Positions 1-7,315 of a DNA stretch of 7,315 nucleotides are shown piece by piece. The DNA is taken from IMG/VR virus record IMGVR_UViG_2778261512_000020, positions 1 through 7,315 of that record; one strand, 5' to 3'. The stretch is from a virus. Its lineage: Duplodnaviria; Heunggongvirae; Uroviricota; Caudoviricetes. The notes below the pieces were generated by a model that saw only the letters and a list, made by a program, of their open reading frames with translations, had not been told where the DNA came from and ran no database searches. The translations under genes and the position numbers were made by a program. Each line of letters begins with the position of its first letter. The first letter of the stretch is position 1.

Positions 1-132
1 ATGATTTACGCAATCGCGGGAGGCGCTCGCATGGGTGCCTTCCAATTAAATGAATCTTTACTTGAACGAATCACCCGTAAATTACGTGACGGATGGAAAA
101 GAGTTGAGGTCTTATTATGCGCAATGAAATAG
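1..132 (+). CDS. cIII: CIII-like protease (FtsH/HflB) inhibitor, 43 aa
   Basis: Translation from the ATG at 1 is MIYAIAGGARMGAFQLNESLLERITRKLRDGWKRVEVLLCAMK, stop TAG 130-132. The core ESLLERITRKLRDGWKR matches the conserved amphipathic helix of lambda CIII as I recall it. Too short for the ORF track. The start coincides with the window edge, so the true start and RBS cannot be checked. Confidence 0.75.
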   Translation: MIYAIAGGARMGAFQLNESLLERITRKLRDGWKRVEVLLCAMK

Positions 133-269
133 CCATCAATCACCAGATGCTTCGTGCAGCACAGAACAAAGCAGTAATAGCCAGATTTATTGGTGATTCA
201 AAAATGTGGATTGAAGCAAATAAAGCGATGAAATCAGCTATCAACCTTCCGTGGTATCGCAGGAAATGA
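117..269 (+). CDS. kil: Kil-like small protein (putative host cell-division inhibitor), 50 aa
   Basis: ATG 117 lies inside the 3' end of cIII in another frame, as kil does in lambda. Translation is MRNEIAINHQMLRAAQNKAVIARFIGDSKMWIEANKAMKSAINLPWYRRK, stop TGA 267-269. The IA-FIGD-KM segment resembles what I remember of lambda Kil; the call rests mainly on synteny and size. Confidence 0.45.
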   Translation: MRNEIAINHQMLRAAQNKAVIARFIGDSKMWIEANKAMKSAINLPWYRRK

Positions 270-424
270 GTTTTACAGATAACTGGTCAGACGAAGAATT
301 CATTCGTCAGATGAAAGAATTAATCGGTAACGAAGGAGATATTCATGTCACTTGCAACCACAGTGAAGGAGAGCAAGTTACAGAGACGCATGTACACGCA
401 GAAAGCTCTCTGGTATCGCCATAA
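266..424 (+). CDS. Hypothetical small protein, 52 aa, at the position where lambda has gam and P22 has arf
   Basis: ATG 266-268 overlaps the kil stop (ATGA, TGA 267-269), with AGGA at 261-264. Translation is MSFTDNWSDEEFIRQMKELIGNEGDIHVTCNHSEGEQVTETHVHAESSLVSP, stop TAA 422-424. It is the only open frame in this interval. Confidence 0.4.
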   Translation: MSFTDNWSDEEFIRQMKELIGNEGDIHVTCNHSEGEQVTETHVHAESSLVSP

Positions 425-525
425 TGGCGACCGCGAAGGAATGCGGGTATGCCTTAATTTGTCCCGAGTCGAAGTATTAAATCAGCGTTATTTCCTTGGG
501 CCGTGTCCATTCTGAGATCAAACAT

Positions 526-1131
526 ATGAGCAAAGAATTTTATGCAAGGCTGGCAGCCATTCAGGAGAATCTGAACGCGCCAAAGAATCAGTACAACTCA
601 TTCGGTAAATATAAATACAGAAGCTGCGAAGACATTCTTGAAGGCGTTAAGCCGTTACTGAATGGTCTGTTTTTATCAATCAGCGATGAAGTTGTGTTGA
701 TTGGTGATCGGTATTACGTGAAAGCCACGGCAACTATTACCGATGGCGAAAACAGTCATACGGCAACCGCTCTTGCACGAGAGGAAGAAAGCAAGAAAGG
801 AATGGATTCTGCACAAGTTACGGGAGCTACAAGCTCTTATGCACGCAAGTATTGCCTCAATGGTTTGTTCGGCATTGATGATGCGAAAGATGCAGATACC
901 GACGAGCATAAACATCAGCAGAACGCAGCAGCAAAGCAATCAAAACCATCACCTACACCTGAACAGGTTCTAAAAGCATTCACTGACGCAGCATTGCAGA
1001 AAAACACCGTGGAAGAGCTTAAACAGGCGTTCGCCAAAGCGTGGAAGATGCTCGAAGGCACACCGGAGCAGCACAAAGCGCAGGACGTTTACAACATCAG
1101 ACGAGACGAATTAGAAGGAGCAGCTGCTTAA
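526..1131 (+). CDS. erf: Erf-family single-strand annealing protein (essential recombination function, P22 Erf-like)
   Basis: 201-aa translation begins MSKEFYARLAAIQENLNAPKNQYNSFGKYKYRSCEDILEGVKPLL, which I recognise as the Erf N-terminal annealing domain, followed by a low-complexity linker and C-terminal domain. The ORF track starts at TTG 496, but the ATG at 526 matches the family N-terminus. Stop TAA 1129-1131. Confidence 0.85.
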   Translation: MSKEFYARLAAIQENLNAPKNQYNSFGKYKYRSCEDILEGVKPLLNGLFLSISDEVVLIGDRYYVKATATITDGENSHTATALAREEESKKGMDSAQVTGATSSYARKYCLNGLFGIDDAKDADTDEHKHQQNAAAKQSKPSPTPEQVLKAFTDAALQKNTVEELKQAFAKAWKMLEGTPEQHKAQDVYNIRRDELEGAAA

Positions 1132-1514
1132 TGGCACATTCGATTACTGTAAGACTAAACAAGCCCGCAAGAGAGTTTCAGGCCGGGGAAAATATCGGAT
1201 TCAACATCCGTGCTGGCGTTCAGTATTACGATCGCCAGACAAAAAAGAAAGAATGGACAAACTACAGCGCCGTTGTATTTGCCAAGCCGGGAGCGCAAGC
1301 GGATTACTACCGTAGTGTTCTTGTTGAAGGTGGCATTGTGGAAATTACCGGAGAAAACATCAGGGTTGATGTTTATCAGGGGCAAAATGGTCAATCAATC
1401 ACTCTTGAATTACTGAATGCAAAGATTGGATTTGCAGCTTCAGGAAATGGCCCGCAGCAGCAAAGTAGTAACCAGCAGAACACTCCTGTATACGACGATT
1501 CCATCCCATTCTGA
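1131..1514 (+). CDS. Phage SSB-like single-stranded DNA-binding protein, 127 aa, with canonical acidic C-terminal tip
   Basis: ATG 1131-1133 overlaps the erf stop (TAATG), with GGAG at 1116-1119. Translation is MAHSITVRLNKPAREF...NAKIGFAASGNGPQQQSSNQQNTPVYDDSIPF. The DDSIPF ending matches the bacterial SSB tail (DDDIPF), the preceding Gln/Gly-rich linker and the N-terminal 100 aa are consistent with an OB fold. The track ORF from 1041 is an in-frame upstream extension inside erf. Confidence 0.7.
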   Translation: MAHSITVRLNKPAREFQAGENIGFNIRAGVQYYDRQTKKKEWTNYSAVVFAKPGAQADYYRSVLVEGGIVEITGENIRVDVYQGQNGQSITLELLNAKIGFAASGNGPQQQSSNQQNTPVYDDSIPF

Positions 1515-1537
1515 TTTAGAACAATAAGGATTTAATT

Positions 1538-1834
1538 ATGCCAGCGCCTCTGTATGGTGCGGATGACGCGCGCCGCTGTTCCGGCAATTCCGTATCGGAG
1601 GTGCTGGATAAATTCAGGAAAAACTACGACCTGATAATGTCGCTACCTCAGGAAACGAAAGAGGAAAAGGAATTTCGCCATTGTATATGGCTTGCAGAGA
1701 AAGAAGAACGAGAGCGAATTTACCAGACATCAATCCGACCATTCCGCAAAGCCACATATACCCACTTCCCTGAATATATCGACCCGCGCCTGCGTAATTA
1801 CCGCTCACGCTATGGCGCTATCAGTAATGACTGA
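1538..1834 (+). CDS. Hypothetical protein, 98 aa, basic/charged
   Basis: ATG 1538 is preceded by AAGGA (1526-1530) with a 7-nt spacer; stop TGA 1832-1834. Translation [63 protein letters not shown]... has no family I can recognise. Confidence 0.55.
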
Positions 1835-1844
1835 GGAATTTACA

Positions 1845-2009
1845 ATGAGAGGACTTGCATACAATCCCGGCATTCTTCCGGCAGAAATGATTATTCGCCA
1901 ACGCGTAAAGCCAATGCCATCGAGAGAGGAATTGCTTAAGAGAAATTCTTTTCCATCAGTGAATCAAAACAAATATCTGAATGCGATGTGGCGGAGTGGG
2001 AAGAAATGA
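1845..2009 (+). CDS. Hypothetical small protein, 54 aa
   Basis: ATG 1845 is preceded by GAGG (1833-1836) with an 8-nt spacer. Translation is [54 protein letters not shown]. Its stop TGA 2007-2009 overlaps the next start (ATGA). The track ORF 1692-2009 is an upstream extension overlapping the previous gene. Confidence 0.45.
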
Positions 2010-2572
2010 AACAAATGTCACTAATTGAGATGGATGGTTTTCTGAAAGGTAAATGCATCCCAAGTGATTTAAAGGTTAACGAAACAAACGCTGAATATCT
2101 GGTGCGTAAATTTGCTGAAGCGGAGGCCAAGATTTCCGCGCTGTCAGAAGACCAGCAGAGAGCGATTGAGTCAATTAAGCAGGCTGATGCGGCTGTTAAG
2201 TTGGCACACGAGAAGTTTTCAGCGCTGGCTGCGGAGAATGCGGTGATGAAAGCGTTTGGCGACAAGCTATACAGCATGTATAAAGGCCTTGAGGCCTCTG
2301 GTGGTGGATTCCATGACGAACAGTCAATTCCCTATCAGCAAGCGGCTCTCGATGCGGCAATATCGGAGTTCGAGAAAATCAAAACCCCGGCGACCGATGC
2401 GTTCCTGGCTGAATTGCTGGCGCATGGTGTGGAGTTGTTTGCTGAAAGCCAGAATGAATACGTCAGAAAAAACCGCAACGAATTGGATTCCATGACTCGC
2501 GCCGCCTATTGCGGAAGCGCTGTTGATGCTGAGAGATTCGCCGCCCAGCTTCGCAAAGGAGTGCAGTCATGA
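2006..2572 (+). CDS. Hypothetical protein, 188 aa, Ala/Glu-rich and probably helical or coiled-coil
   Basis: ATG 2006 has GGAAG 5 nt upstream and an ATGA overlap with the preceding ORF; the track start GTG 1988 is also possible. Translation [71 protein letters not shown]... Stop TGA 2570-2572. Confidence 0.6.
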
Positions 2573-2802
2573 GCAACCTACTACCATGTCCATTCTGTGG
2601 CGGCGCAGCGCACGTTGCCAGTGAAGCAGATCACCCTGAATATGGCTCTGGAGGTAGATTCTATTTCGTTCGATGCGGTACGTGTCGCGCTCAATCTGGT
2701 AGCAAATATGCAGCGCCTGGAAATGACTGCGCGATTTTTTATTCAGAGGTTAGAGCTGAGTGGAATCAGCGAGCAAAGGAGGCAACCAGTGAGCGAAATT
2801 AA
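2569..2802 (+). CDS. lar: Lar-family restriction-alleviation protein (zinc-ribbon, Rac prophage Lar/RalR-like), 77 aa
   Basis: ATG 2569 overlaps the preceding stop (ATGA), with AAGGAG at 2556-2561. Translation [44 protein letters not shown]...AEWNQRAKE has the CPFCGG ... CGTC zinc-ribbon arrangement I associate with Lar-family proteins. Stop TAA 2800-2802. Confidence 0.65.
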   Translation: MSNLLPCPFCGGAAHVASEADHPEYGSGGRFYFVRCGTCRAQSGSKYAAPGNDCAIFYSEVRAEWNQRAKEATSERN

Positions 2803-3241
2803 TTACCAGGCACTGCGTGCTAAGGCAGAAAAAGCAACGTGTGGCGAGTGGTCGCTCGAATATGGAGATGGCCGATTTGATGGTGATGATGCGCTAATTC
2901 ATCGCGAGGCTGCTGGATATATTCCCATTTGCAGAATTGAAGGCGCGCATCCAGAAAGCGGTTTCGATGAAGATTTCCAAATGGAACAGCAGGCCAATGC
3001 TGAATTCATCGCCGCAGCCAATCCAGCTACCGTGCTGGCGCTGCTGGATGAGCTGGAAGCCAAAGACAAGCGGATTGCTGACATGGAGGCGCGGGAGGTT
3101 GTACTGCCGCGTGCGCACGATGTTCACCCATTAGGGCCGCAGTCGGCGAAAATTTTTTGTGAGTTTCACCGGAGTATCGTGAACAGATGCGCCGATGAGA
3201 TTCGCAAGGTTGGCGTCAAAGTCAGCATCAAGGGGAATTAG
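2789..3241 (+). CDS. Ead/Ea22-like family protein, 150 aa
   Basis: GTG 2789 is preceded by a strong AAGGAGG (2776-2782) with a 6-nt spacer. Translation VSEINYQALRAKAEKATCGEWSLEYGDGRFDGDD...ANAEFIAAANPATVLALLDELEAKDKRIADMEAR carries the GEW and FIAAA...LLDELEAKDKRIA motifs I recognise from Ead/Ea22-like prophage proteins. The track ORF from 2597 is an extension running through the lar gene in another frame. Confidence 0.55.
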   Translation: MSEINYQALRAKAEKATCGEWSLEYGDGRFDGDDALIHREAAGYIPICRIEGAHPESGFDEDFQMEQQANAEFIAAANPATVLALLDELEAKDKRIADMEAREVVLPRAHDVHPLGPQSAKIFCEFHRSIVNRCADEIRKVGVKVSIKGN

Positions 3242-3245
3242 GGAT

Positions 3246-3647
3246 ATGGCTGAACTAACCAAAGAATGGCTGAAGCAAACTATCGCTGAATACGAAGCCA
3301 ATCGTGATGAATTACCGTTTGGACTGGATACCAACAGTGCCATTGAGCTTCAGGCGTTCAAGTTGGCGCTGGCATCGCTGGAAGCAGATCCAGTTGCTTA
3401 TATTTTCAAACATCCGGCCGGGAAATTATTCTTGGCTTTAACGGATGAAAGCAATAAAGATCAATCGGACGTTATTCCTGTTTATGCCGCCCCTCCAGTA
3501 CCAGTAGTACCTGCTGCATTACCTGAGAACGACGATGAGGACTGGCATGACATTGATTATCTTGAGCCATCTGAAGTTTACTCGCTTGGGCGAACAGCTG
3601 GCTGGAACGCCTGCCGTGCTGCCATGCTTAAGGGAGATAAATCATGA
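3246..3647 (+). CDS. Hypothetical prophage protein, 133 aa
   Basis: ATG 3246 follows the previous stop TAG 3239-3241, with AGGGG at 3231-3235. Translation MAELTKEWLKQTIAEYEANRDELPFGL...VAYIFKHPAGKLF...PVYAAPP...GWNACRAAMLKGDKS has typical coding codon usage. The track start at 3195 would overlap the previous gene. Confidence 0.6.
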   Translation: MAELTKEWLKQTIAEYEANRDELPFGLDTNSAIELQAFKLALASLEADPVAYIFKHPAGKLFLALTDESNKDQSDVIPVYAAPPVPVVPAALPENDDEDWHDIDYLEPSEVYSLGRTAGWNACRAAMLKGDKS

Positions 3648-4060
3648 TTAATCGCACCAAGCTGGAGCACATCCTCGAATATGCCAGACAGCAGAGGCGC
3701 TTTGGTCAGCATTGCAAAATTCCGCCAGGAGATATGGTTGAAATCGTGGAGATTGCCATGCGCAAGGCTGGCAACTCTCCGGTAACTCCGGATGGTTGGA
3801 TAAGCTGTAGTGATCGAATGCCTGTAATTGGTGAGCTAAATTGGAGAACTAGTTTTCCTTTGCTGATTACGTGTGAGATTGGCGTTATACCAGCTTATTA
3901 CGGCTTTGTGAGCATTAATGGGGATAGGCATTATGGCTTTATGGAGAGTCTTAAATACGGAGACGATAGCGGCGGCCATCCTCAAACTAATGAATATGAT
4001 CTGATTAGCAATGTAACCCACTGGATGCCGCTACCAGAACCGCCTCAGGAGGCAAAATGA
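3644..4060 (+). CDS. DUF551-like prophage protein, 138 aa
   Basis: ATG 3644 overlaps the preceding stop (ATGA), with AGGGAG at 3632-3637. The C-terminus ...NVTHWMPLPEPPQEAK and the internal W-x-S-x-DR-x-P segment match my recollection of DUF551 proteins found near xis/int in enterobacterial prophages. Confidence 0.55.
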   Translation: MINRTKLEHILEYARQQRRFGQHCKIPPGDMVEIVEIAMRKAGNSPVTPDGWISCSDRMPVIGELNWRTSFPLLITCEIGVIPAYYGFVSINGDRHYGFMESLKYGDDSGGHPQTNEYDLISNVTHWMPLPEPPQEAK

Positions 4061-4316
4061 TGGATGTAAAAGAGAAGGTTTTGCAGGTGATGCGTTCCCG
4101 GGCGCCCTGCAAGATAAAGCTCTCGGCGGGGAATATCCATTCAGGATGGCAACCTGGAATCTGCGGTTGGCAATGGAGAAGGAATTTCCTGATGAAGAAT
4201 GGCGTTCGGCAGATTTGCGCAAAATTCTTATGGAGCTGGCTAAAGACGGAGCAGTATCCAAAGATACCTATGCCAGCCGGATTGGTCAGACGGTATGGAG
4301 ACTGGAGGTGAGGTAA
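4057..4316 (+). CDS. Hypothetical small protein with ambiguous reading frame (possible frameshifted gene)
   Basis: A strong AGGAGG (4046-4051) and ATG 4057/4060 with an ATGA overlap indicate initiation in the track frame (4057-4311). Downstream, that frame is rich in Trp and rare Arg/Ile codons (AGG, AGA, ATA, CGG), whereas the -1 frame reads protein-like (MATWNLRLAMEKEFPDEEWRSADLRKILMELAKDGAVSKDTYASRIGQTVWRLEVR, ATG 4146 to TAA 4314-4316). Confidence 0.3.
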
Positions 4317-4423
4317 TGGCTAACCTGCAACTTGCCGTCAAATGTGAATAACAATCCTCGCATTCGCGGGGATTTCTTTTATCTGAACTCGCTACGGCGA
4401 GTTTTGTTTTATGGAGATGATAA

Positions 4424-4591
4424 ATGCACTTCCGAGTCACAGGTGAATGGAATGGAGAACCATTCAACAGAGTTATCGAAGCAGAGAACATCAATGACTG
4501 CTATGACCACTGGATGATATGGGCGCAGATAGCACATGCAGACATAACCAATATTCGAATTGAAGAACTGAAAGAACACCAAGCCGCCTGA
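4424..4591 (+). CDS. Hypothetical protein, 55 aa, directly upstream of xis (same size and spacing as the small ORF upstream of xis in lambda)
   Basis: ATG 4424 is preceded by GGAG (4413-4416) with a 7-nt spacer. Translation is MHFRVTGEWNGEPFNRVIEAENINDCYDHWMIWAQIAHADITNIRIEELKEHQAA, stop TGA 4589-4591. It is 168 nt long and 39 nt from the xis start, which is what I recall for lambda. The track missed it (under 60 aa). Confidence 0.55.
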   Translation: MHFRVTGEWNGEPFNRVIEAENINDCYDHWMIWAQIAHADITNIRIEELKEHQAA

Positions 4592-4606
4592 TGGCGGCTT
4601 TTTCTT
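4581..4606 (+). terminator. Rho-independent terminator-like hairpin
   Basis: Perfect 8-bp stem AAGCCGCC (4581-4588) / GGCGGCTT (4593-4600) with loop TGAT, followed by a T-run (4599-4603, TTTTTCTT). The stop codon of the 55-aa ORF lies in the loop. Confidence 0.6.
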
Positions 4607-4650
4607 GCGTGTAATTGCGGAGACTTTGCGATGTACTTGACACTTCAGGA
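4600..4650 (+). promoter_or_regulatory. pI (int) promoter region with cII-binding tetrad repeat TTGC-N6-TTGC
   Basis: TTGCgtgtaaTTGC at 4605-4618 is the direct-repeat architecture of cII-activated promoters (pRE, pI, paQ). It sits just upstream of and overlapping the xis start (4631), as in lambda, where the pI transcript starts inside xis so Int is made without Xis. Confidence 0.65.
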
Positions 4651-4849
4651 GTGGAACGCACGCCAGCGACGCCCAAGAAGCCTTGAAACAGTTCGTCGAT
4701 GGGTGCGCGAATGCAGGATATTCCCTCCTCCGGTTAAGGATGGAAGAGAGTATCTGTTCCACGAATCAGCGGTAAAGGTTGACTTAAATCGACCAGTAAC
4801 AGGTAGCCTTTTGAAGAGGATCAGAAATGGGAAGAAGGCGAAGTCATGA
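4631..4849 (+). CDS. xis: Excisionase Xis, 72 aa
   Basis: Translation MYLTLQEWNARQRRPRSLETVRRWVRECRIFPPPVKDGREYLFHESAVKVDLNRPVTGSLLKRIRNGKKAKS matches lambda Xis as I recall it. The 3' end overlaps the int start by 23 nt, as in lambda. Confidence 0.95.
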   Translation: MYLTLQEWNARQRRPRSLETVRRWVRECRIFPPPVKDGREYLFHESAVKVDLNRPVTGSLLKRIRNGKKAKS

Positions 4850-5897
4850 GCGCCGGGATTTACCCCCTAACCTTTATATAAGAAACAATGGATATTACTG
4901 CTACAGGGACCCAAGGACGGGTAAAGAGTTTGGTTTAGGCCGAGACAGGAGGATAGCAATCACTGAAGCAATACAGGCCAATATTGAGTTATTTTCAGGA
5001 CACAAACACAAGCCTCTGACAGCGAGAATCAACAGTGATAATTCTGTTACGTTACATTCATGGCTTGATCGCTACGAAAAAATCCTCGCCAGCAGAGGAA
5101 TCAAGCAGAAGACACTCATAAATTACATGAGCAAAATTAAAGCAATAAGGAGGGGGCTGCCTGATGCTCCACTTGAAGACATCACCACAAAAGAAATTGC
5201 GGCAATGCTCAATGGATACATAGACGAGGGCAAGGCGGCGTCAGCCAAGTTAATCAGATCAACACTGAGCGATGCATTCCGAGAGGCAATAGCTGAAGGC
5301 CATATAACAACAAACCCGGTCGCTGCCACTCGCGCAGCAAAATCAGAGGTAAGGAGATCAAGACTTACGGCTGACGAATACCTGAAAATTTATCAAGCAG
5401 CAGAATCATCACCATGTTGGCTCAGACTTGCAATGGAACTGGCTGTTGTTACCGGGCAGCGAGTTGGTGATTTATGCGAAATGAAGTGGTCTGATATCGT
5501 AGATGGATATCTTTATGTCGAACAAAGCAAAACAGGCGTAAAAATTGCCATCCCTACAACATTGCATGTTGATGCTCTCGGGATATCAATGAAGGAAACA
5601 CTTGATAAATGCAAAGAGATTCTTGGCGGAGAAACCATAATTGCATCTACTCGTCGTGAACCGCTTTCATCCGGCACAGTATCAAGGTATTTTATGCGCG
5701 CACGAAAAGCATCAGGTCTTTCCTTCGAAGGGGATCCGCCTACCTTTCACGAGTTGCGCAGTTTGTCTGCAAGACTCTATGAGAAGCAGATAAGCGATAA
5801 GTTTGCTCAACATCTTCTCGGACATAAGTCGGACACCATGGCATCACAGTATCGTGATGACAGAGGCAGGGAGTGGGACAAAATTGAAATCAAATAA
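4827..5897 (+). CDS. int: Tyrosine site-specific integrase Int (lambda-type), 356 aa
   Basis: Translation begins MGRRRSHERRDLPPNLYIRNNGYYCYRDPRTGKEFGLGRDRRIAITEA and ends SQYRDDRGREWDKIEIK, with the catalytic R...HxxR...Y residues (HELRSL, HLLGHKSD, ASQYRDD). It matches lambda Int as I recall it. Stop TAA 5895-5897. Confidence 0.97.
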   Translation: MGRRRSHERRDLPPNLYIRNNGYYCYRDPRTGKEFGLGRDRRIAITEAIQANIELFSGHKHKPLTARINSDNSVTLHSWLDRYEKILASRGIKQKTLINYMSKIKAIRRGLPDAPLEDITTKEIAAMLNGYIDEGKAASAKLIRSTLSDAFREAIAEGHITTNPVAATRAAKSEVRRSRLTADEYLKIYQAAESSPCWLRLAMELAVVTGQRVGDLCEMKWSDIVDGYLYVEQSKTGVKIAIPTTLHVDALGISMKETLDKCKEILGGETIIASTRREPLSSGTVSRYFMRARKASGLSFEGDPPTFHELRSLSARLYEKQISDKFAQHLLGHKSDTMASQYRDDRGREWDKIEIK

Positions 5898-5925
5898 TGA
5901 TTTTATTTTGACTGATAGTGACCTG
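5893..5925. promoter_or_regulatory. Int arm-type binding sites P'3-P'2-P'1 in the P' arm
   Basis: AATAATGATTTTATTTTGACTGATAGTGACCTG is the reverse complement of the lambda P' arm segment CAGGTCACTATCAGTCAAAATAAAATCATTATT. P'3 overlaps the int stop codon. Confidence 0.75.
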
Positions 5926-5932
5926 TTCGTTG

Positions 5933-5945
5933 CAACAAATTGATA
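5933..5945. promoter_or_regulatory. IHF binding site H' in the P' arm
   Basis: CAACAAATTGATA is the reverse complement of TATCAATTTGTTG, which fits the IHF consensus WATCAANNNNTTR. It lies between the arm-type sites and the core, as in lambda attP. Confidence 0.65.
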
Positions 5946-6031
5946 AGCAATGTTTTTTTATAATGCCAACTTAGTATAAAAAAGCAGGCTTCAACGGATT
6001 CATTTTTCTATTTCATAGCCCGGAGCAACCT

Positions 6032-7315
6032 GTGAACACATTTTCAGTTTCCCGTCTGGCGCTGGCATTGGCTTTTGGCGTGACGCTGACCGCCTGTAGC
6101 TCAACACCACCCGATCAACGTCCTTCTGATCAAACCGCGCCTGGTACCTCTTCTCGCCCGATTCTGTCGGCAAAAGAAGCGCAGAATTTCGATGCTCAAC
6201 ACTATTTTGCATCCCTGACACCAGGTGCTGCAGCGTGGAATCCTTCCCCGATTACCCTGCCTGCGCAACCTGACTTTGTTGTCGGCCCGGCGGGTACTCA
6301 AGGTGTAACGCATACCACGATTCAGGCGGCGGTAGATGCGGCAATTATCAAGCGCACTAACAAGCGCCAGTATATTGCCGTGATGCCTGGTGAGTATCAG
6401 GGAACGGTGTATGTCCCTGCTGCTCCGGGTGGAATTACTCTGTACGGTACAGGTGAAAAACCGATTGATGTGAAGATTGGGCTTTCCCTTGATGGGGGCA
6501 TGAGCCCTGCCGACTGGCGTCACGACGTCAACCCGCGCGGCAAATATATGCCAGGTAAACCAGCGTGGTATATGTACGATAGCTGCCAGAGCAAACGCAG
6601 CGACAGTATCGGTGTTCTCTGCTCTGCGGTCTTCTGGTCACAAAACAATGGCCTGCAACTGCAAAATCTGACCATCGAAAACACGCTGGGCGATAGCGTA
6701 GATGCAGGTAACCATCCGGCGGTGGCACTGCGTACTGATGGTGACCAGGTACAGATTAACAACGTTAACATTCTCGGTCGTCAGAACACCTTCTTTGTCA
6801 CCAACAGCGGTGTGCAGAACCGTCTGGAAACCAACCGTCAGCCGCGTACGCTGGTGACCAACAGCTACATTGAAGGGGATGTGGATATCGTTTCTGGTCG
6901 CGGCGCAGTGGTGTTCGATAACACCGAATTCCGCGTGGTGAACTCACGTACTCAGCAAGAAGCGTATGTGTTTGCACCGGCTACGCTGTCCAACATTTAC
7001 TACGGTTTCCTCGCCGTAAACAGCCGTTTCAATGCTTTCGGTGATGGTGTGGCGCAACTGGGCCGCTCGCTGGATGTTGATGCCAATACCAACGGTCAGG
7101 TGGTGATCCGTGATAGCGCCATCAACGAAGGTTTTAACACGGCTAAACCGTGGGCCGATGCGGTGATCTCTAATCGTCCGTTTGCGGGTAATACCGGCAG
7201 CGTAGATGATAACGACGAAATACAGCGCAATCTGAATGACACTAACTACAACCGCATGTGGGAATACAATAACCGCGGCGTGGGTAGTAAAGTGGTTGCA
7301 GAGGCGAAGAAGTAA
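6032..7315 (+). CDS. ybhC: Host outer-membrane lipoprotein YbhC (pectinesterase-fold acyl-CoA thioesterase family), 427 aa
   Basis: GTG 6032 is preceded by GGAG (6022-6025). The N-terminus MNTFSVSRLALALAFGVTLTAC has a lipoprotein signal peptide with lipobox LTAC, and the body has pectinesterase/beta-helix-like repeats. ybhC flanks attB-lambda in E. coli K-12. Stop TAA 7313-7315. Confidence 0.9.
   Translation: MNTFSVSRLALALAFGVTLTACSSTPPDQRPSDQTAPGTSSRPILSAKEAQNFDAQHYFASLTPGAAAWNPSPITLPAQPDFVVGPAGTQGVTHTTIQAAVDAAIIKRTNKRQYIAVMPGEYQGTVYVPAAPGGITLYGTGEKPIDVKIGLSLDGGMSPADWRHDVNPRGKYMPGKPAWYMYDSCQSKRSDSIGVLCSAVFWSQNNGLQLQNLTIENTLGDSVDAGNHPAVALRTDGDQVQINNVNILGRQNTFFVTNSGVQNRLETNRQPRTLVTNSYIEGDVDIVSGRGAVVFDNTEFRVVNSRTQQEAYVFAPATLSNIYYGFLAVNSRFNAFGDGVAQLGRSLDVDANTNGQVVIRDSAINEGFNTAKPWADAVISNRPFAGNTGSVDDNDEIQRNLNDTNYNRMWEYNNRGVGSKVVAEAKK

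Follow-up and report, generated by a model that had tools for sequence, protein, structure and literature searches.

The window analysed here, a 7,315-base stretch at positions 1 to 7,315 of IMG/VR record IMGVR_UViG_2778261512_000020, takes in the promoter-distal stretch of a lambdoid prophage's early-left (pL) operon, together with the integration end of that prophage (Table 1). Our subject is a small gene lodged between erf, which encodes an SSAP (single-strand annealing protein), and abc2, which adds the last part of a recombination module. Its 127-residue product is predicted to be a very divergent SSB (single-stranded DNA-binding protein) with a C-terminal tip like that of the bacterial host. 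The upstream gene had been taken for erf in an earlier note made from the sequence alone, and profile searches agree: the product matches PF04404 over residues 5-143 (151.6 bits, cut-off 25, E = 2e-44) and PHROG 155 (E = 2e-57). The locus has the gene order of phage HK97 (gp42, erf, gene 40 and abc2), and nucleotides 400-1900 are 97-98% identical to HK97, HK106, Sf101, CUS-3 and Stx1a-converting phages. Copies of the same gene 40, whose product is gp40, are carried by HK022, HK106, Sf101, CUS-3 and Stx1a and Stx2a prophages, and nothing substantive distinguishes the window protein from HK97 gp40. The 400-1900 region is present in 1,380 of 5,426 complete Escherichia coli genomes.

The stop codon of erf and the start codon of the SSB-like gene share the pentamer TAATG, as the earlier note had pointed out and as direct reading of the sequence bears out, which gives a one-base overlap between erf and an open reading frame (ORF) of 127 codons. 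A Shine-Dalgarno-like AAGGAG lies 11 bases ahead of the second ATG, inside erf, and no promoter-like or terminator-like site was found in the interval between the two genes. Such overlaps are not unusual in the window (the cIII/kil and xis/int junctions overlap as well, as do those at 2569-2572 and 3644-3647), and erf of phage P22 likewise overlaps abc1, the gene that follows it, by one base. The same one-base overlap was found at every locus inspected within a class of 71 loci that combine the window-type Erf tail, described below, with a gp40-type gene, and TAATG-type junctions recur in distant relatives irrespective of the 5' gene. Because the overlap is conserved, translational coupling of the SSB-like gene to erf is plausible.

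Table 1 Features of the recombination module and of the remainder of the 7,315-base window.
Feature	Position	Strand	Family or basis
cIII	1-132	+	Pfam Lambda_CIII
kil	117-269	+	
Small ORF, 56 residues, directly 5' of erf	345-515	+	PHROG 1723, E = 9e-36
erf, single-strand annealing protein, 201 residues (ATG at 526, TAA 1129-1131)	526-1131	+	PF04404, PHROG 155
Erf C-terminal module, predicted three-helix, residues 145-201	958-1128	+	
AAGGAG, Shine-Dalgarno-like, for the SSB-like gene, inside the end of erf	1114-1119	+	sequence reading
TAATG, erf stop and SSB-like gene start, one-base overlap	1129-1133	+	
SSB-like gene, 127 residues (ATG 1131-1133, TGA 1512-1514)	1131-1514	+	
Predicted OB-fold domain of the SSB-like gene, residues 1-103	1131-1439	+	HK97 gp40 / 'SSB-1b' family
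Predicted disordered Q/N/S/P-rich linker, residues 104-120	1440-1490	+	
C-terminal tip YDDSIPF, residues 121-127, and stop codon	1491-1514	+	
abc2, anti-RecBCD (RecBCD-modifying) protein	1538-1834	+	Pfam PF11043, E = 4e-62
Accessory gene run 3' of abc2, including a Lar-like protein and a DUF551 protein			
xis	4631-4849		λ-type
int	4827-5897		λ-type
λ attachment core GCTTTTTTATACTAA	5971-5985	-	exact
Pectinesterase-family host gene	6032 to window end		

Several points count against an SSB assignment. A Pfam search with the 127-residue protein returned no match even at E = 10, and the protein does not reach the curated threshold of PF00436; its score against TIGR00621 (E = 0.069, 13.5 bits) falls below the cut-off of 53.95; searches of PDB sequences with the single sequence and with a family profile returned noise only; and the study that named HK97 gp40 'SSB-1b', from an AlphaFold 3 fold like that of bacterial SSB at a sequence identity of at most 15%, states that SSB-1b proteins have not been studied experimentally (Genome Res 2025, PMC12315714). 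Aligned with E. coli SSB, only the last residues correspond, and none of the 318 homologs gathered carries a precomputed Pfam domain. At the same time, the protein matches PHROG 44 ('single strand DNA binding protein') at E = 3e-27, and sub-threshold matches to PF00436 appear in 7 of 33 gp40-family relatives (best E = 0.0038). The family is small: only 219 clusters (50% identity) reach E ≤ 0.001 from 1.84 billion representatives, and its profile thus stays apart from the large canonical SSB family. Protein homologs of the window protein are 94-100% identical (some Stx1a phage proteins 100%); a scan of IMG/VR with the family returned only copies of 97-100% identity, a scan of genome contigs gave 11 loci, and about 330 Vibrio phage records hold a relative.

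Structure prediction, which the earlier note had named as a means of refuting its proposal, gave an oligonucleotide/oligosaccharide-binding (OB) fold. In the AlphaFold2 model, residues 1-100 have OB topology with a predicted local distance difference test score (pLDDT) of 92-96, laid out as three strands, a helix at residues 55-63 and further strands, followed by a disordered tail from residue 104. In a Foldseek comparison with the PDB, all 50 best matches were bacterial SSB, mitochondrial SSB or PriB (probability 1.0, E 4e-5 to 9e-4, template modelling score 0.4-0.56, identity 10-18%). The resemblance to PriB (1woc, 2ccz) raises the alternative of a different OB protein, for instance an accessory of the primosome or of replication restart that resembles PriB, or a binder of RNA or oligonucleotides, in place of an SSB that coats ssDNA generally. 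PriB consists of a single OB domain with neither a disordered linker nor an IPF tip, whereas the window protein and its family carry both, and PriB membership was rejected on that ground; profile-profile comparison moreover matches SSB OB domains, and the gene occupies a slot in a recombination module. We regard this alternative as highly improbable.

The profile comparison speaks for an SSB. A broadened gp40-family profile, with linker and tip cut off, was aligned by hhalign with a canonical SSB profile built from ten diverse phage SSBs, and the OB domains alone gave a probability of 93.6% and E = 2e-7 over 88 columns, which points to homology with SSB OB domains beyond a resemblance in fold. 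Residues Y32, F50 and Y82 of the window protein stand opposite W40, F60 and W88 of E. coli SSB, which stack on single-stranded DNA (ssDNA), and the three positions are aromatic in 26, 45 and 37 of 46 family members, respectively. Together, predicted structure and profile comparison settle the question in support of a very divergent SSB, and the protein would be expected to bind ssDNA. In the same alignment Tyr45, invariant in 46 of 46 diverse family members, lies opposite His55 of E. coli SSB, in a register uncertain by 1-2 residues; the classic temperature-sensitive ssb-1 mutation is H55Y, which weakens the tetramer.

The C-terminal end of the protein reads ...GNGPQQQSSNQQNTPVYDDSIPF / ...QQNTPVYDDSIPF, with the tip YDDSIPF, so the terminal DDSIPF of the earlier note was read correctly. 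The description of the preceding linker as Gln/Gly-rich was only roughly right: it is rich in Gln, and its composition as a whole is better given as Q/N/S/P-rich over about 17 residues (pLDDT falls below 50 for residues 107-127 of the model). Across the homologs, a conserved domain of about 100 residues is followed by a Q/P-rich linker, hypervariable in length and sequence, and by an [F/W/Y]-D-[D/E]-x-IPF end; the window protein is among the shortest family members. An [I/P]P[F/Y] end is present in 80 of 109 full-length cluster representatives, and the distant representatives at 50% identity mostly end in D-[D/E]-x-IPF, many in FDDDIPF like bacterial SSB. That the final residues are conserved next to so variable a linker indicates that the tip is under selection. 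With this conservation, the OB-fold model, the Foldseek matches and the OB-only alignment, the view of the product as SSB-like with a host-type tip is well supported. A few SSBs (P0104, P0118 and the one at 1981-2529 of L203) have residues past IPF (...DDDIPFNQGGR; ...DDDIPFAPIGLQYGRNLLHVI), making the usual terminal Phe carboxylate internal, as a natural variant or as an artefact of sequencing or annotation.

E. coli SSB shares with the window protein an OB fold, a disordered linker, an acidic tip ending in IPF and the aligned aromatic residues. It differs in linker length (about 60 residues against about 17) and in sequence (identity about 10-18%), and where the host protein ends in DFDDDIPF, the phage tip has Ser in place of the third Asp. 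The SSB of phage HK620 (HkaK, 'SSB-2') sits in the same slot, between the gene for the annealing protein Sak4 and abc2, and has a similar tail, NDYPPF; it belongs, however, to a different family (PHROG 743, not 44), is 195 residues long and partners a Sak4 that has no three-helix tail. It binds ssDNA, and its last six residues (NDYPPF) are required to stimulate Sak4 (PMC5928155). Given the shared slot and the tail-dependent stimulation of an annealing protein, HK620 SSB is the closest experimental model for the window protein, which may likewise act on recombination. In P22, Abc1 takes the middle position of the module; gp40 as a diverged Abc1 was rejected, BLASTP giving no alignment at E ≤ 100.

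The module of erf, gene 40 and abc2 is an ordinary one that has been described before, and its SSB assignment is in print as a prediction from the fold. What we add is a profile-level test of homology, the conservation of the tip across the family and the observation that this SSB family is not specific to Erf, together with a lead that a portable tail of annealing proteins may be a receptor for the SSB tip. The IPF tip, the Erf tail and remote sequence homology go undiscussed in the main text of PMC12315714, which explicitly sets 'shuffling of partner interaction domains' outside its scope. A gp40-type gene is present in about a quarter of complete E. coli genomes and in many Stx-converting phages; most copies are annotated as hypothetical, RefSeq/PGAP still labels the gene 'hypothetical protein', and the HK75 equivalent is still called 'uncharacterized' in a 2026 preprint. 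A firm SSB assignment closes this annotation gap.

The earlier suggestion that the protein is the cognate SSB for Erf proved too narrow. The gene does commonly lie directly after erf, and gp40-type relatives occupy that position in L085, L087, L092, L094 and L095. Others, however, directly follow a Rad52_Rad22 protein (Yersinia, L096 and L097), a Sak4-like AAA_24 protein (Leminorella, L098), RecT with a YqaJ exonuclease (a Vibrio phage, L086), a PolB-exo-like nuclease (L099) or a DksA-like protein (L083), and two occur without an annealing protein (L084, and L088, which adjoins a dUTPase gene). Because its relatives follow several kinds of annealing protein or none, the gp40-type protein is a swappable recombination-module SSB, in agreement with the combinatorial picture of PMC12315714. 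The gp40-family gene at about 1974-2432 of L205 (Vibrio phage 1.042.O, MG592425.1; E = 4e-45), whose product ends in NNEPPF, lies directly after erf and is without annotation in the record; what the record shows in its place is a hypothetical gene at 2245-2556, on the opposite strand.

The contexts that lack a nearby annealing protein (L083, L084 and L088) indicate uses of gp40-type proteins independent of an SSAP, and they would also suit a decoy that takes over host functions as its main task instead of serving Erf, in which extra IPF tips, whether on ssDNA or not, titrate or redirect RecO, RecQ, ExoI, PriA, the chi subunit and Ung and thereby bias repair and replication towards the phage. 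A tip nearly identical to that of the host and conserved across the family, carried on a minimal linker, fits such a role. The OB domain, however, is intact and strongly conserved, and together with the conserved aromatic residues it argues for genuine DNA binding; the prevailing position of these genes is immediately behind that of an annealing protein, and the tail of HK620 SSB acts on the phage's own annealing protein. We therefore consider the decoy improbable.

A candidate partner for the tip lies in the adjacent Erf protein. Its core annealing domain extends from residue 1 to about residue 144; compared with P22 Erf, the identity of 75% overall breaks down into 90% over the first 145 residues and 31% over the last 45, while the two Abc2 proteins are 93% identical. 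When 80 IMG/VR loci were classed by Erf tail type and next gene, a window-type tail preceded a gp40-type SSB in 71 and a canonical SSB ending in DFDDDIPF in 6, and a P22-type tail preceded Abc1 in the remaining 3. Loci L115-L119 join an Erf core 98-99% identical to that of P22 to a window-type tail and gp40; these hybrids indicate a recombination joint inside erf, with the tail moving together with the next gene.

Modelled on its own (AlphaFold2, window positions 946-1128, with the hits of at least 82% identity listed for full-length Erf as alignment depth), the tail is predicted with a pLDDT of 93.5 as three helices, at residues 5-18, 22-35 and 41-59 of the modelled segment. Its motif, ..FT..A....ELK.AF..AW..L......KA..VY.IR..EL over about 57 residues, also ends Erf proteins with other cores, Yersinia Rad52-type proteins, and Sak4-like proteins of Leminorella and of an Erwinia phage. 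Within the tail, L153, F156, A160, L169 and L180 are invariant. The tail on an Erf core (L206) and the tail on a Rad52 core (L096) are 68% identical, and BLASTP found no significant similarity between those two cores. A homology search with the 61-residue tail matched only short Erf fragments, hmmsearch and hhalign comparisons of the tail with λ Redβ, HK620 Sak4, HK620 SSB and HkaM gave no match, and we found no description of the module in the literature searched.

Of the 14 lineages that bear the tail, 12 have a gene for an IPF- or PPF-tipped protein directly next (in one of them the unannotated gene of Vibrio phage 1.042.O), and the tipped proteins belong to three families at least, namely gp40-type SSBs, canonical SSBs and a 105-residue PHROG 24909 protein. 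The four tip-less gp40-type SSBs examined all follow short, tail-less Erf proteins. A precedent exists in Redβ, a Rad52-like annealing protein that carries a three-helix bundle of about 60-67 residues at its C-terminus beyond a flexible hinge; Erf is predicted to end in three helices as well. The Redβ bundle binds the nine C-terminal residues of SSB, with the terminal Phe needed (PMC6393309), λ Orf is another binder of the SSB tail, and the last 7 residues of SSB set the compatibility of RecT. By analogy with the Redβ bundle, we infer that the SSB tip docks on the Erf tail.

Against this stand several observations. The link between tail and tip is correlative, and since the tail adjoins the next gene, linkage by itself predicts that tail and SSB gene will be inherited together. 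P22, with Abc1 next, and Erwinia phage vB_EhrS_59 have the tail with no adjacent SSB; SSBs with a tip are encoded behind tail-less Erf (L197, L198) and RecT (L086) as well; the tip-less clade may go back to one event in evolution; and HK620 Sak4, which depends on the SSB tail, has no Erf-type tail module. A strict two-way correlation was accordingly rejected, and the tail-tip relation runs one way only.

These same exceptions, together with a non-specific outcome of fold searches with the Erf module, leave room for the module to dock some other partner (Abc2-modified RecBCD, Abc1, the small upstream protein or a host factor), in which case co-inheritance with the SSB would reflect linkage and joints in the erf hinge; P22 keeps a diverged module with Abc1 next and no SSB, and the Erwinia phage has its module without a neighbouring SSB. 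Abc2 and Abc1, however, are absent from most tail-bearing loci (L087, L094-L098, L202, L203 and L206), an absence that also led us to reject the tail as an Abc2-binding element. No neighbour recurs except a tip-bearing protein, drawn from three families, and the host SSB would still make the same tip available in P22 and the Erwinia phage. We judge a partner other than the SSB tip rather unlikely, though a stronger contender than the decoy.

Weighing these points, we think it likely that the window holds an HK97-like erf-ssb-abc2 recombination module in which the diverged SSB serves as the partner protein through contact between its tip and the Erf tail. Under this reading, the small ORF, erf, the SSB gene and abc2 would be expressed on one transcript from pL. 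Abc2 would convert RecBCD into a resection enzyme, and the phage SSB, made in step with Erf by virtue of the shared transcript and the overlapping stop and start codons, would coat the exposed single strand. Its IPF tip would then recruit Erf by docking onto the C-terminal three-helix module, and Erf would anneal the SSB-coated DNA; the same tip could engage host proteins that read the SSB tail.

A more general and more tentative proposal, which we hold at somewhat less than even, extends this contact to a portable plug and socket. The socket would be the tail of about 57 residues, borne on annealing cores that are otherwise unrelated (Erf, Rad52/Sak-type and RecA-like Sak4-type), and the plug the (I/P)PF tip of the next SSB, the two being exchanged as a cassette through joints in the erf hinge. 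The plug may be a gp40-type SSB, a canonical SSB, the 105-residue PHROG 24909 protein or, where no SSB is phage-encoded, the host SSB. If correct, this would explain the free mixing of lambdoid recombination modules, and the Erf module as a tip receptor would supply a structural logic for the shuffling of annealing cores and SSBs in phages. The socket would also offer a transplantable handle for fitting annealing proteins to a chosen SSB, with tail swapping as a possible means of re-targeting them to the SSB of a given host. Erf-family proteins are under-used in recombineering, where the need to match SSAP and SSB is known to restrict transfer from one species to another, and the natural compact cassette of Erf, the 127-residue SSB and Abc2 is an obvious candidate unit for recombineering.

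Three further observations concern annealing-protein tails and tips. The gp40 relatives of a Serratia/Rahnella group (P0058-P0081, L094 and L095) end in (A/E/S/T)PPF, like the NDYPPF of HK620, and the Erf tails of this group are the most diverged of the Erf-borne tails, which could reflect co-variation of tail and tip. The tail-less Erf proteins of L192, L194, L195, L197 and L198 share a different C-terminal motif, ..W I. A V .. D .. V L. Q I ... Y K. F I K. N A G I, that points to a second partner module; three of the five precede SSBs in which the tip is replaced by ...NF(N/Q)QP(Q)R. The 105-residue PHROG 24909 protein at 1976-2293 of L202 (Vibrio phage 1.108.O, MG592482.1), encoded directly after a tail-bearing Erf, ends in ...DDFQEDSIPF, gave no match to the gp40-type or canonical SSB OB profile, and may represent a third type of small ssDNA-binding protein with a tip.

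The small ORF directly upstream of erf is the counterpart of HK97 gp42/gp42.1 and HK620 HkaM, and PHROG 1723 carries the label 'recombinase'. The region is 96% identical in nucleotide sequence to HK97. Relative to HK97 gp42.1, two 1-base deletions near 393-400 break the 83-residue frame, leaving a 57-residue Arf-like N-terminal ORF (251-424) and the 56-residue ORF, which has a new N-terminus and the same C-terminal 38 residues as gp42.1. By its position upstream of erf, the 56-residue product probably corresponds to HK75 Gp33, reported as a trigger of the P2 OLD defence (2026 preprint). It ends in ...FLGPCPF, and its homologs end in LPF, CPF or EPF. Small proteins encoded 5' of other annealing genes likewise end in hydrophobic-Pro-Phe: ...PSELPF at 5754-5942 of L199 (HK620 hkaM), ...FLGKLPF in an L201 ORF ending at 1099 and ...DGKEPF in an L098 ORF ending at 681. 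This end, which P22 Arf does not have, resembles the SSB IPF tip and might dock at the site proposed for the SSB tail.

Beyond abc2 and the accessory genes, the attachment core GCTTTTTTATACTAA lies between the λ-type int and a pectinesterase-family host gene, which we take to be ybhC from the E. coli map, and the window therefore spans the int-proximal prophage end at the λ attachment site. Terminator-like sites number 12 in the window against 6.5 expected from shuffled sequence. Three terminator-like hairpins lie 5' of xis, within 4353-4404 and 4581-4600, the one at 4581-4600 being terminator-like on both strands.

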